64,000 bases of DNA, from positions 1,248,001 through 1,312,000 of the forward strand of contig CAWGHO010000002.1 in NCBI GenBank assembly GCA_963822445.1, given 5' to 3'. The notes beneath the pieces are model-generated. The model searched no databases, had not been told where the DNA came from, and saw nothing but the letters and a program-made list of their open reading frames with translations. Positions 10,266 to 14,376 of this stretch are shown here, piece after piece. How positions within the stretch are numbered: the first letter of the stretch is position 1; each line of letters opens with the position of its first letter. Made by a program: the position numbers and the translations under genes. The DNA is from an uncultured Acidobacteriota bacterium. GTDB lineage: Bacteria; Acidobacteriota; Thermoanaerobaculia; Gp7-AA8.

Positions 10266-10487
10266 ATGACCGATTACCAAATCAACATCTTCCACGGCGA
10301 GGAGGATGGCGGTTATATCGCCGACATTCCTGATCTCGACGCTTGCTCTGCGTTCGGTGCAACTCCGGACCAGGCTCTCGCCGAGGTAGAACGCGACAAA
10401 TCGGCCTGGCTCGCAGCGGCGCGCGACGGCGGCAAGCCAATCCCGGAACCTCGATACAGGCCCGTTATTTACCAGGTCCGAAGCTGA
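10266..10487 (+). CDS. HicB-family antitoxin, short orphan
   Basis: EEDGGYIADIPDLDACSAFGATPDQAL...GKPIPEP is the HicB N-terminal signature. Confidence 0.85.
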   Translation: MTDYQINIFHGEEDGGYIADIPDLDACSAFGATPDQALAEVERDKSAWLAAARDGGKPIPEPRYRPVIYQVRS

Positions 10488-11461
10488 TGCACAGTTCCCC
10501 CATCCCCGAATCCCACCCCTGCTTCGAGTACATCCGCCTCACGGACTCCGTGCCCGCCTCGCAACGCGACTGCATCGACATCGCGCTGCTGGACATGAAT
10601 CACTCCTGGCCGAATGTCGGGCACCACGCGCTGGTGCACGCGGTTCAGAAGACGGCCCAGGAGCTGCGCGAGGAGCTGGGGAAGATCAACGCGAAGGTTC
10701 GCGTGCTGTCGTACGACGTGCGCCGGCAGAACCTGATCCCGGAATCGCCGAACGGCCGCTTTCAGATTTACATCGGCACGGGCGGGCCGGGGCATCTCGA
10801 CCCGCGCCTGAACGACGGCATCAGCGAGACCAGTCAGGGCGTCGACGAAACGGATGCGTGGGAGAAGCCGCTGTTCCGCCTGTTCGACGACATCCTCGCC
10901 TCACGCACCGCGGCGATGCTCGCGATCTGCCACTCGTTCGGACTGGTATGCCGCTGGTCCGAGATCGCCCGCCCTGAGTTACGCCCCGAGAAGAGCTCGG
11001 GGATGCCGCTCAATCGCCTGTCACGCGAAGCACTGAATCATCCCTGGTTCGAGCAGTTCGCGCGCGAGCTTCCCGATCATCAGCATTTCCGCGTGGTGGA
11101 CAATCGTCTGTTCGATCTGATGCTGGAAAGCCCCGGCAAGAGCGCGCCGATCGCGTTCGAAGCCGCGGGCAGCACGGCGTTGACGATGGTGGAACTGGCC
11201 CGCGACCCGGAAGGCACGATGCCCCGGTTTCTCGGCGTGAATCATCATCCGGAGATCATCGACCGCGATCACATCATGCAGGTCCTCGACGCGAAACGCG
11301 CCCAGGGCGAGGTGAGCGATCAGTGGTACGAGGAACGCGCGGTGACGATGCGCGATCTGTTTCACGGGGAGCCGGAACGCCAGAGCCGCCTGACGTCGCA
11401 GTTCACGCTGCTGGCGCCTTTGCGCTTCCATCTCGAACGCGTGATTCGCGAGCGTTCCTAG
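10487..11461 (+). CDS. Class I glutamine amidotransferase-like protein
   Basis: GGPG oxyanion loop, AICHSFG nucleophile Cys, NHHPE His-Glu; TGATG overlap with hicB. Confidence 0.7.
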   Translation: MHSSPIPESHPCFEYIRLTDSVPASQRDCIDIALLDMNHSWPNVGHHALVHAVQKTAQELREELGKINAKVRVLSYDVRRQNLIPESPNGRFQIYIGTGGPGHLDPRLNDGISETSQGVDETDAWEKPLFRLFDDILASRTAAMLAICHSFGLVCRWSEIARPELRPEKSSGMPLNRLSREALNHPWFEQFARELPDHQHFRVVDNRLFDLMLESPGKSAPIAFEAAGSTALTMVELARDPEGTMPRFLGVNHHPEIIDRDHIMQVLDAKRAQGEVSDQWYEERAVTMRDLFHGEPERQSRLTSQFTLLAPLRFHLERVIRERS

Positions 11462-11602
11462 TTGCAACAGGGAACGACCGGGAGGCCTCCGGCGGGCCGG
11501 CACGGCCGGCAGCGCTGATGTTTGCGTAAACGCGATTCGCGCTAGATACCGTGAGCACGGCAGAAGGGACAACCAGCGCTGCCGGCCCGTGGCCGGCCCG
11601 CC
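11461..11602. repeat. REP-like inverted repeat (family A): left arm plus start of right arm, interrupted by IS110
   Basis: 11461-11517 is nearly the reverse complement of 11574-11602 joined to 13144-13172. Confidence 0.88.
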
Positions 11603-11609
11603 TATAGCT

Positions 11610-11865
11610 TGTCCGGCCGTCTCTCCGCTTCTCCCTCAGCCCTCAGAGAAGTACCCGTTGGGTGGCAATCGGGAGAATCGGGTTCAGGCGGCGCGATACT
11701 GAGAAGAAGGGTTCGTCCCGCTACGAATTCCGCCCGTGTTCGGATCGACGAATCCCTCCGGACTTTCGAGCGGGACGAAGTGCTTTGGCCCGAAACGCAT
11801 TCTCAGATGCTGTCGGAGCACGACTCGACTATAGGCCTTGCGCGCGGCCAAAGCCAACCCGAAGG
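11610..11865 (+). ncRNA. Putative IS110 bridge RNA (target- and donor-binding loops); ends approximate
   Basis: Stems 11712-22/11769-79 and 11782-90/11846-54 enclose segments matching the target and donor junction sequences. Confidence 0.8.
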
Positions 11866-11874
11866 GAGGGTGTG

Positions 11875-13119
11875 ATGAGCGAGTTCGAGTTTGGGGCGTT
11901 GGTGGGACTGGATTGGGGTGACACATCGCACGAGGTGGCTCTTTGGGACGAGCAGCAGCAGACGTGCACGAACGAGCGCATCGAGCACACGCCTGCGGCT
12001 CTGCGCGCATGGATCGAAGCGCTGCAGGCGCGCTTCGGCGGGGCACCGATCGCCGTGGCCATCGAGCAGTCCCGCGGCGCGGTCTTCGACGCGCTCAGCG
12101 GCTATCCGTTCGTCACGTTGTATCCGATCAACCCACGCAGTGCAGCCCGGTATCGTGAGGCGTTTCATCCGAGCCTTTCGAAAGACGATCCGACCGACGC
12201 GGCGTCCTTGCTCGACCTGCTCCGTAAGCACCGCAACGAGCTGCGCCCGTTCATCGCCGACGACGCTTCTACGCGGCTGCTGCGGCTTCTGACCGAGGAT
12301 CGGCGGGAGCTCGTCGATCAGAGGACGCAACACGTCCAACGCATGACCGATCGGCTCAAGACGTACTACCCGCAGGCGCTCCGGTGGGCCGGCGCGTTGA
12401 TTACGGCCCAGGCCTGTGACTTCCTCGAACGCTGGCCGACGCTCGAGGCCATCCAAAGGGCTCGGCCGTCCGCGATACGGAGGTTCTATGCGGGTCATCA
12501 TCACGCGGCCGCGTGGATCGACCAGAGGCTCGCCGAGATCCGTTCAGAGGTCGCGTTCCACGACGACCAGGTCACCACTGACGCTGCCGTGCTGCTGATC
12601 GGAAGCGAGGTTGCGCAGATCCGGGCCCTCAACACGAGCATCGCCACGTACGACCAGAAGATCTCGGCGGCGTTCGCCGCCCACCAGGACGCGTCGATCT
12701 TCGCGAGCTTCCCTGGCGCCGGCCAACAGCTCGCGCCGCGGCTCGCCGCCGCCTTCGGGACCGATCGCAAGCGCTTCGGCAGCGCCGTCAACGTCGCCAC
12801 CCGAAGCGGCATCGCCCCGGTTCTCCGCCGGAGCGGCAAAACGGCGGTCGTGCACATGCGCTGGGCCTGTCCGAAGTTCCTGCGTCAGACGTTCCATGAG
12901 TACGCCCGCGTGTCGATCGGTCAGTCCGAATGGGCTCGAGCCTTCTACAAGCAGCAACGCGCGCGCGGACACAGCCACCACGAGGCTATCCGCACGCTCG
13001 CTTACCGCTGGATCCGCGTCCTTTACGCCTGCTGGAACAATCGCACCGTCTACGACGAAGCTCTCTATCTGCGGCAGCTCGCCACCCGAGGCTCAACCCT
13101 CGCCACAGCTGCTCCCTGA
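11875..13119 (+). CDS. IS110-family recombinase (DEDD RuvC-like domain plus Tnp domain)
   Basis: GLDW, AIEQ and KDDPTDA give the DEDD residues; APVLRRSGK carries the candidate catalytic Ser; RBS GGAGG before ATG 11875. Confidence 0.95.
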   Translation: MSEFEFGALVGLDWGDTSHEVALWDEQQQTCTNERIEHTPAALRAWIEALQARFGGAPIAVAIEQSRGAVFDALSGYPFVTLYPINPRSAARYREAFHPSLSKDDPTDAASLLDLLRKHRNELRPFIADDASTRLLRLLTEDRRELVDQRTQHVQRMTDRLKTYYPQALRWAGALITAQACDFLERWPTLEAIQRARPSAIRRFYAGHHHAAAWIDQRLAEIRSEVAFHDDQVTTDAAVLLIGSEVAQIRALNTSIATYDQKISAAFAAHQDASIFASFPGAGQQLAPRLAAAFGTDRKRFGSAVNVATRSGIAPVLRRSGKTAVVHMRWACPKFLRQTFHEYARVSIGQSEWARAFYKQQRARGHSHHEAIRTLAYRWIRVLYACWNNRTVYDEALYLRQLATRGSTLATAAP

Positions 13120-13120
13120 C

Positions 13121-13126
13121 TTGACA
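13121..13126 (+). promoter_or_regulatory. -35 hexamer at the IS right end; completes a promoter with TATAGC (11603-11608) in the circular form
   Basis: TTGACA followed by exactly 17 nt to the end of the CC core. Confidence 0.75.
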
Positions 13127-13143
13127 GGAAGGCTCAGATGTCC

Positions 13144-13172
13144 GGAGGCCTCCCGTCGGTCCCTGTCGCAAC
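13144..13172. repeat. Remainder of the REP right arm displaced by IS110
   Basis: GGAGGCCTCCCGTCGGTCCCTGTCGCAAC is nearly the reverse complement of 11461-11490. Confidence 0.85.
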
Positions 13173-13209
13173 CAGGAACAATCAGCAACGACACGCGTCA
13201 ATTGGACAT

Positions 13210-14376
13210 ATGCGCAGATGGACACTGGCACTTCTCCTTCTCGTCGCTTGCGCCTCCGGCACGACCCAGCCGGCGACGACCACCGCTGACATCGTCGGAA
13301 CGCGTGTCCACATCCCTGTCTCCGTCAATGGCGCCGCGCCGGCGACGTTCATCCTCGATACCGGTGCGGTCAAATCGCCCGTCGATCCGAAGTACGCCGA
13401 AACGTTGGGCATCAAGTCGCGCGGGAGCGTGACGGCGCAGGGCGCCGGCGGATCGGTGAAAGTCGGTCTCGCTTCTGACCTGCGGATGTCCTTCGCCGGC
13501 CTCAACGCCAAGGTCGAAAAGAGCCCGATGACGCCTCTTGGTGCGATCAGCCTTCGCATCGGCCAGCCCGTCCATGGCGTTCTCGGCTACGACGTCATGC
13601 GCAAGTACGTCACCGAGATCGACTACGCGAACGAGCGCGTCACCTTCCATCCGCCGTCCTTCAGGCCGCCGGCCGAGGCCGTGCGTCTGCCGATCAGGTT
13701 CGATGGACATCTGCCGCTCGTCGACGCGCGCATCACCCTGCCCGATGGCCGCGAATTACATCCGCGGCTTCTCATCGATACCGGCGCGGGCAACGGGTTG
13801 ATCCTCACACGCGCTTACGTTGCGAAGTCGAAGATCGAGATCGAGCCGACCCTCGAGATCACCGGCGGTCTTGGGGTGGGGGGCGAGACCCGCACCCGCC
13901 TCGGGCGCATCGGCAGCCTTCAACTGGCCGGGTTCACGTTCGACAACCCGCTCGCTTCCATGTCGCGCGACACACGCGGCGTGCTCGCGAGCTCAGACTT
14001 CGATGGTCTGATCGGTGGTCCGATCCTGCGGCGATTCACGCTCTACGTCGACTACCCGCGCAAAGAATTCGCGTTCCTTCCCAATGCCGCGTTCCATACG
14101 CCGATCGAAGCCGACGGCAGCGGACTCGGACTCGCGTCGCGCGACCACAAGTTCGACACGGTGGTGATCCGCGAAGTGCTTTCGAACACGCCTGCGTCCG
14201 AGGCGGATCTGCGCGTGGGAGATGAGGTCGTTGCGGTCGATGGCAAAGCGGCCGTTCCGAAGGACCTCGACGAGATCCGCGAAGCATTCAGGGAGCACGG
14301 TCGGAGCTTCAGCCTCACCATCCGCCGCGACGGATCGCAATCGACGGTGACGCTCGTCACCCGCCGGCTCATCTGA
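13210..14376 (+). CDS. Lipoprotein aspartyl protease (two retropepsin-like domains) with C-terminal PDZ
   Basis: LVAC lipobox; FILDTGA and LLIDTGA; PDZ-like TPASEADLRVGDEVVAVDG. Confidence 0.85.
   Translation: MRRWTLALLLLVACASGTTQPATTTADIVGTRVHIPVSVNGAAPATFILDTGAVKSPVDPKYAETLGIKSRGSVTAQGAGGSVKVGLASDLRMSFAGLNAKVEKSPMTPLGAISLRIGQPVHGVLGYDVMRKYVTEIDYANERVTFHPPSFRPPAEAVRLPIRFDGHLPLVDARITLPDGRELHPRLLIDTGAGNGLILTRAYVAKSKIEIEPTLEITGGLGVGGETRTRLGRIGSLQLAGFTFDNPLASMSRDTRGVLASSDFDGLIGGPILRRFTLYVDYPRKEFAFLPNAAFHTPIEADGSGLGLASRDHKFDTVVIREVLSNTPASEADLRVGDEVVAVDGKAAVPKDLDEIREAFREHGRSFSLTIRRDGSQSTVTLVTRRLI

Follow-up and report, generated by a model that had tools for sequence, protein, structure and literature searches.

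Positions 11603-13141 of the 64,000-nt stretch of acidobacterial DNA analysed here (the window) very probably constitute, as judged from sequence comparison, an IS110-group element with an IS621-type bridge RNA encoded in its left end. According to the available text of PMC11208160, the description of bridge RNAs in IS110 elements dates from 2024, and orthologs of these RNAs have been predicted in the thousands. The predicted bridge RNA of the window is genuine and belongs to a class already established since 2024, and its interest is modest; its family may already be listed among the published bridge-RNA predictions. It can be read directly from the raw sequence, and it adds a recently active, multi-copy acidobacterial IS110-group element with a defined target, donor, core, guides and candidate junction promoter. 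Its incremental value lies in a CC-core system, in 7-nt right guides, and in naturally occurring left guides that leave the core unpaired, the element having evidently transposed recently.

Ends, copies and genomic target

Nine full-length copies of the element, at 96-100% identity, are present in its own genome (3 contigs, 6.0 Mb), three of them 100% identical over all 1539 bp. The nine copies share the same exact ends and the same junctions, ...GCCCGCC / TATAGC...CAGATGT / CCGGAGGC (slashes mark the ends of the element), with the same CC dinucleotide flanking both sides, whilst the vacant target 13-mer GCCCGCCGGAGGC occurs 41 times in the genome, each time with a single CC. Together, the identical junctions and the vacant sites place the element at 11603-13141 on the plus strand and identify CC as its 2-nt core, the left copy of which lies at 11601-02 and the right copy at 13142-43. 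The preliminary description had taken 13133-40 as the right end of the element; the 8-nt match that it saw there is present, but the copies and vacant sites put the last base one position further, at 13141. No inverted repeat is formed by the ends, TATAGC... and ...CAGATGT, and the element is devoid of long terminal inverted repeats; its left end measures 272 bp versus 22 bp for the right. The left donor end (LD, CTCAGATGT), set from the junctions of copies and homologs, occupies 13133-13141 on the plus strand, and the right donor end (RD, TATAG) lies at 11603-11608 on the same strand, where it would also serve as the -10-like hexamer (TATAGC) of the putative circle-junction promoter discussed below.

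The recombinase gene (11875-13119, plus strand) encodes 414 aa and has a ribosome-binding site, GGGAGG, at 11864-69. Its product matches the Pfam families PF01548 (DEDD_Tnp_IS110; 1.6e-28) and PF02371 (Transposase_20; 1.3e-11). Across 24 recombinase homologs, D13, E64, D104/D105 and D108 are invariant and S320, which aligns to the SG of ISCro4, is kept in 23; we take these to be the catalytic motif residues of a DEDD/Tnp recombinase. A search of PDB sequences returned weak similarity to IS621 (E = 3e-4) and ISCro4 (1.8e-5), in the Tnp domain only. The 414-aa ORF is intact in 9/9 full copies, so that the intact 414-aa recombinase with a CC core proposed in the preliminary description is borne out by the Pfam domains, the nine ORFs, the nine junctions and the 41 vacant sites. 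A longer frame of 485 aa, starting at 11662, is disfavoured, as a 1-bp indel occurs among the copies at 11858, ahead of the start codon of the 414-aa frame.

Among the nine copies, the left end has 11 variable sites, nine at 11661-11705 and the other two at 11844 and 11858, with none at 11706-11843; from 11875 to the end of the element there are 72, with none in the 22-bp right end. This pattern points to selection on the bridge RNA, whose guide region is invariant as against the 72 variable sites from 11875 onward. With three identical copies and all nine ORFs intact, the element has evidently been active recently. Two additional copies, at C1:940345-941443 and C3:469171-470863, are rearranged: one of the pair is made up of two 3' portions arranged head to head, and the other carries an internal inversion of ~160 bp (query positions 412-579).

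The element sits in a long hairpin repeat of the host. The left part of this repeat (11469-11602) ends with the seven left target bases (LT7, CGGCCCG, 11594-11600) and the left CC core, and the remainder (13142-13175) begins with the right CC core and the right target GGAGG (13144-48). Without the element, the left part (~134 bp) is found at 24 genomic places, and for an intact example of the repeat, of about 175 bp, an almost perfect hairpin is predicted (-161 kcal/mol). Each arm of the hairpin contains the target, most repeat copies therefore offering two sites, and the insertion point within the target is the same in all nine full copies. Sites with a perfect LT7 are not occupied significantly more often (3/11 versus 6/38; Fisher p = 0.40). 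In the repeat copy of the window, a second, vacant target lies on the minus strand near 11483-11500. The element interrupts neither of its neighbours, an upstream ORF (10484-11458) without a Pfam match and a downstream gene (13207-14373) for a protein with aspartyl-protease (PF13650) and PDZ domains, between which the hairpin repeat is located.

Fold, guides and covariation of the bridge RNA

The bridge RNA core, comprising a target-loop and a donor-loop module, spans 11708-11864 on the plus strand, as do all the RNA features below, and is matched with 166 bits by a covariance model, CM R1, that was built from eight left ends. Upstream of the guide loops, the minimum free energy (MFE) fold shows a 5' hairpin region (11612-11700), which is variable both among the copies, as seen in the nine sites at 11661-11705, and in length among homologs (dL 48-200). 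The two closed stems of the preliminary description, 11712-22/11769-79 and 11782-90/11846-54, were recovered in full, together with its four loop segments: CCGCC (11730-34), CCTCCGG (11755-61), CTCAGATG (11802-09) and CTATAGG (11829-35). The DNA counterparts of the last three are CCGGAGG (13142-48), CTCAGATG (13133-40) and CCTATAG (11601-07), respectively.

The target-binding loop module (11712-11779) is closed by the first of these stems plus 11724-27/11765-68, and has an apical stem-loop at 11739-52. Its left target guide (LTG, 11730-11738) consists of CCGCCCG (11730-36), corresponding to LT7, and UG (11737-38), which stands opposite the core CC and is not complementary to it. This 5' strand of the loop (11730-36) represents the seven bases left of the insertion point and would pair with the bottom strand; it matches the left flank at 7/7 positions at three of the nine insertion sites and at 6/7 at the other six, including that of the window copy. 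Complementarity of the 3' strand (11755-61) extends over the CC core and the five bases to its right: within the right target guide (RTG, 11755-11763), 11755-59 would pair with GGAGG and 11760-61 with the core CC, so that the pairing of CCTCCGG with core and right target reported in the preliminary description is complete (7/7). The two bases that follow each right guide would fit the partner DNA, as handshake guides do. In the target loop, where a 9-nt reverse complement of 13140-48 is present (11755-63), the handshake AC (11762-63) is complementary to the last bases of the element, GT, and not to the CG of the target.

The donor-binding loop module (11782-11854) has the second closing stem, an inner stem at 11796-99/11839-42 and an apical stem-loop at 11812-24. 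Its 5' strand corresponds to the right end of the element, and the core and the first five bases of the left end find their complement in its 3' strand. In the left donor guide (LDG, 11802-11811), CUCAGAUG (11802-09) equals 13133-40, and the following CU (11810-11) lies opposite the last base of the element, T, and the first core C, to which it is not Watson-Crick complementary; in all, three positions beside and in the core are non-complementary, including U 11811 and the stem base G 11812. In the right donor guide (RDG, 11829-11837), 11829-33 would pair with RD TATAG and 11834-35 with the core CC, in agreement with the 7-nt match between CTATAGG and core plus left end (11601-07) first read from the raw sequence, and one of the two handshake positions (11836-37, CC) fits the last left bases of the target.

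A scan of 11300-13400 against Rfam 15 returned no bridge-RNA family, the best match reaching 24.1 bits versus a gathering score of 150; the below-threshold matches were miRNA- or sRNA-like noise, on the host hairpin. Chance expectation within the window was assessed by 5,000 dinucleotide shuffles of 11708-11864, from which the longest matches to the junctions were taken. Equal matches were found for the LDG-like 8 nt in 303/5,000 shuffles, for the RTG-like 9 nt in 81/5,000 and for the RDG-like 8 nt in 246/5,000, and the summed match length was reached in 33/5,000. For the left target, the match seen in the window does not exceed chance expectation, having been equalled or exceeded in 3,204/5,000 shuffles, and the best left-target 6-mer in the window lies in stem 2 and not in the target loop. 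Taken within the window, the matches are only moderately above chance; it is the comparison with homologs that makes the observation convincing.

A protein-guided scan identified 72 homologous loci in Thermoanaerobaculia (83-89% identity), Vicinamibacterales (~52%), other Acidobacteriota, Planctomycetota, Gammaproteobacteria and other hosts. Their upstream regions align with the left end in the window, and the RNAalifold consensus is the same fold. Over the window and the 72 loci, CM R1 gave 68 matches (E <= 0.01), of which 62 are on the plus strand and lie just upstream of the recombinase wherever its start falls within the locus, whilst six weak minus-strand matches overlap the plus-strand ones. 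In an alignment that is fitted to the model and thereby favours structure, pairs are formed in 93.4% of cells (35 matches, E <= 0.001), versus 29-41% with partners slid, and 25 of the 31 base pairs show changes on both sides; none of 500 shuffles reaches any of these measures. Both-side changes occur in 10/11 pairs of helix 1, the target closing stem, and in 9/9 pairs of helix 3, the donor closing stem.

For the comparison of loops with their flanks, left ends of homologs were set by a TATAG-type motif matching the donor loop and right ends by a CTCAG motif matching the other strand of that loop, and one representative was taken per distinct target loop, giving 30 elements from the 62 plus-strand matches. 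A TATAG-type left end is invariant in 30/30 of these aligned elements, and the same dinucleotide at both assumed junction positions is absent in 12/30. Left ends were not found automatically for L018, L023, L036, L058, L078 and L050, the right end of L051 is doubtful, and L029 and L087 have different dinucleotides at their two junctions; problem rows with both flanks were kept in the 30-element counts and left out of the counts on 18 same-core elements given in the next section. A gammaproteobacterial group (L039, L040, L042, L052, L061, L067-L076) has CT at its left junction, before TATAG, TG at the assumed right core and a right target guide that expects CT+TGTTA; its right end may be one base longer, or its core rule may be different.

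Averaged over the 30 different target loops, the 5' strand of the loop and the left flank of its own element share a longest match of 5.97 nt, versus 2.83 nt for the flanks of other elements; for the reverse complement of the 3' strand and its own right flank, the average is 5.6 nt, versus 2.64 nt. The observed fit was reached in 0/10,000 permutations on either side, a test that overstates independence because related homologs share loops and targets; the number of different targets is nevertheless large. The distinct targets tracked include CC+ATGCC, CC+GGAGG, CT+GCCAG, CT+ACGTT, CT+CTATT, AT+GTTCG and GT+TGTTA, and even single-base differences are followed, ACCTCGC, ACCTCCC and GCTTCGC being matched by ACCTCGC, ACCTCCC and aCTTCGC. 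The LDG follows five LD variants (CAGATG, CAGAC, CAGAG, CAGGT and CAGGG) and the RDG follows the core in 26/30 elements, the covariation of the donor loop being weaker than that of the target loop because donor ends are conserved. Aligning homologous left ends, the check that the preliminary description had suggested, has thus revealed loops that covary with flanking target and donor. Its assignment of the IS621-type order LTG, RTG, LDG, RDG stands likewise, as all parts of this layout that sequence can test are present and covary across homologs.

In two Vicinamibacterales loci, L024 (2117-2306) and L021 (2086-2290), an additional palindrome of ~140-150 bp is inserted downstream of the TATAG end and ahead of the bridge RNA, and the distance from one to the other is 185-200 nt, versus 48-56 nt in sister copies. 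A class-wide CM search matched the RNA in 4/150 other genomes of the class and added one close relative, L085 (CT core), but no new left flank. L085 (G139:C277) has the same closing stem as the RNA of the window and AG instead of GG in its right guides; its right target guide fits its own flank with one G-T wobble, and its contig ends inside the left end.

Guide register and core pairing

The preliminary description had read the left target guide as CCGCC, that is, flank plus core. This register was not upheld: homology sets 11730-36 against the flank, with 11737-38 opposite the core. In the best alignment of the homologs, the core-opposed LTG bases lie directly 5' of the apical stem in 13/18 same-core elements, and at the same columns the closest relatives have TGGCCCG-CC, TGGCCCG-CA and CGGCCCG-TG. 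In the relatives for which a left flank is available, L012 and L011, 6 and 5 of the 7 left-target positions match, and the register set by homology is also the one that gives the 7/7 matches at three insertion sites. A genuine bridge RNA with its LTG in the other register, where CCGCC (11730-34) would represent three flank bases plus the CC core and four unpaired bases would precede the apical stem, is unlikely, although CCGCC is literally identical to 11598-11602 and this register would pair the core, as IS621 prefers according to the available text of PMC11208160. The literal match is due to a repeat inside the target, CCG-CCCG-CC, which lets both registers fit (5/9 versus 6/9 in the window copy).

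With the guide in the register set by homology, the statement of the preliminary description that the left guides match less fully than the right ones proved correct, and is a family-wide trait across the 18 same-core elements, whose cores are CC (7), CT (7), AT (2), GT (1) and TG (1); the guide alignments are offset-optimised, which inflates the match counts that follow. The RTG pairs both core bases in 17/18 elements and, beyond the core, 5/5 bases in 15/18, with positions 6-7 unmatched in 14/18, and the RDG pairs both core bases in 16/18; core covariation of the right guides spans CC, CT, AT and GT. The LTG fits the core at 2/2 positions in 6/18, and the second core position of the LDG fits in 1/18. 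As for the handshakes, that of the target loop fits the last two LD bases at 2/2 in 13/18 and switches from GT to AT with the right end, and position 7 of the donor-loop handshake fits in 16/18.

In IS621, each of the four guides pairs with the core as part of its match, and there is a strong preference for core pairing on both strands (PMC11208160, available text). In the window element, this does not hold for all four guides, as UG stands opposite CC at 11737-38 and U 11811 and G 11812 are likewise non-complementary. This mismatch of the left guides lowers the case for rules identical to those of IS621, and not the case for a bridge RNA. The UG in the LTG and the three terminal LDG positions that lack complementarity, along with the two rearranged partial copies in the genome, might also be taken to indicate a decaying relic, whose RNA-guided insertion is inefficient and whose copies have spread by recombination between host repeats or by duplication. 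We consider this highly improbable: 9/9 full copies lie at exactly the same target position with exact ends, three are identical, all ORFs are intact and the guide region is invariant. Moreover, incomplete core pairing of the left guides is common to many homologs that are multi-copy in one genome, such as Vicinamibacterales L014-L020, whose LDG does not pair with the second core base.

That the left end is a structured 5' leader regulating translation of the transposase, its flank matches being chance or a by-product of a palindromic target, is scarcely credible: significance within the window is modest, and the target contains CCGG, which allows the strands of the target loop to pair with each other in the MFE fold, but loop/target covariation contradicts it, since the loops change with unrelated, non-palindromic targets (none of the permutations reaching the observed fit) and the right guides change in step with the core dinucleotide (CC, CT, AT and GT).

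Returning to a bridge RNA whose left guides leave the core unpaired, we tentatively raise the idea, about which we remain doubtful, that this acidobacterial lineage and its relatives in Vicinamibacterales, Planctomycetota and other groups form a bridge-recombinase subtype with pairing rules of its own. In such a subtype, the identity of the core (CC, CT, AT or GT) would be recognised solely by the two right guides, with 5+2 nt and a 2-nt handshake; the left guides would recognise 7-8 bases of the flank without pairing to the core on the bottom strand, and C would be tolerated by the enzyme as the second core base. If true, this would provide an orthogonal programmable recombinase with a target grammar unlike that of IS621/IS622, as well as a natural test of whether core pairing by the left guides is dispensable. 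Left guides leaving the core unpaired also bear on how strict the core rule of IS621 is elsewhere, and on which orthologs to choose for genome engineering.

Known systems and the circle junction

As far as the available text of PMC11208160 and PMC11208158 describes IS621 and IS622 (ISCro4), the element resembles them in several respects. It shares with them a recombinase combining a DEDD RuvC-like domain with a Tnp serine recombinase domain, and a long left end encoding an RNA with the target loop followed by the donor loop, in the order LTG, RTG, LDG, RDG. The 5' strands of the loops read the bottom strand and the 3' strands the top strand; a 2-nt core is present at both junctions, the left target arm is 7 nt long and handshake dinucleotides follow the right guides. 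Common to them also are a promoter split across the circle junction, which in the present element is a prediction, and insertion into a repeated palindromic host element. Handshake guides have been described for IS621 (PMC11208158, available text) and for IS622.

The differences are equally specific. The core is CC here and CT in IS621 and its close relatives, in which the second T is almost invariant (PMC11208158, available text). The right target guide has 7 nt (5 plus the core) versus 4 in IS621, longer RTGs being reported for some orthologs (PMC11208160, available text), and the left guides lack complementarity to the core, unlike those described for IS621. At 414 aa versus 326-341 aa in IS621/IS622, the enzyme is about 80 aa longer and weakly similar, and the RNA is extended by a 5' hairpin region of ~95 nt. 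The host is acidobacterial, unlike those of IS621/IS622, and the nearest relatives are labelled Thermoanaerobaculia.

ISPpu9 and ISPpu10 of Pseudomonas putida (PMC12288879; bioRxiv 10.64898/2026.03.19.712850) are likewise multi-copy IS110-family elements, all of whose copies occupy a single position in a repeated extragenic palindrome (REP). Going by the descriptions in the available text, however, the small RNA of ISPpu9 lies downstream of the transposase gene, versus upstream here, and hosts and targets differ. Elements of the IS1111 group, with a guide RNA in the right end (seekRNA; PMC13604230, PMC11208160, available text), have a recombinase of the same family and share the RNA-guided principle, but combine a long right end with a short left end and longer subterminal inverted repeats, whereas here the right end measures 22 bp and the RNA is in the left end.

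A promoter at the circle junction has been reported for IS110 elements (PMC11208160, available text). In the 22-bp right end of the window element we recognised, from sequence only, a -35 hexamer, TTGACA (13121-13126, plus strand), which after circularisation would be separated from TATAGC (11603-08) by 17 nt, made up of 15 nt of right end and the CC core. A TTGAC-type hexamer (at least 4/6 matches) is present at the same spacing in 18/33 distinct homolog junctions, and in several others the hexamer is shifted by one base. No consensus plus-strand promoter was found upstream of the integrated copy in the window. By analogy with the published IS621 mechanism, the element would excise as a circle, and its joined ends would form a sigma-70 promoter from which the RNA and the recombinase are transcribed. 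A recombinase tetramer would then hold the two loops and align the circle junction with CGGCCCG/CCGCCCG-CC-GGAGG in the host hairpin repeat, and strands would be exchanged at the CC core. On the minus strand, inside the donor loop, a further promoter-like arrangement (11857-11828; TTGGCT, 18 nt, TATAGT) can be discerned, which is probably due to chance, as CTATAG is its own reverse complement.
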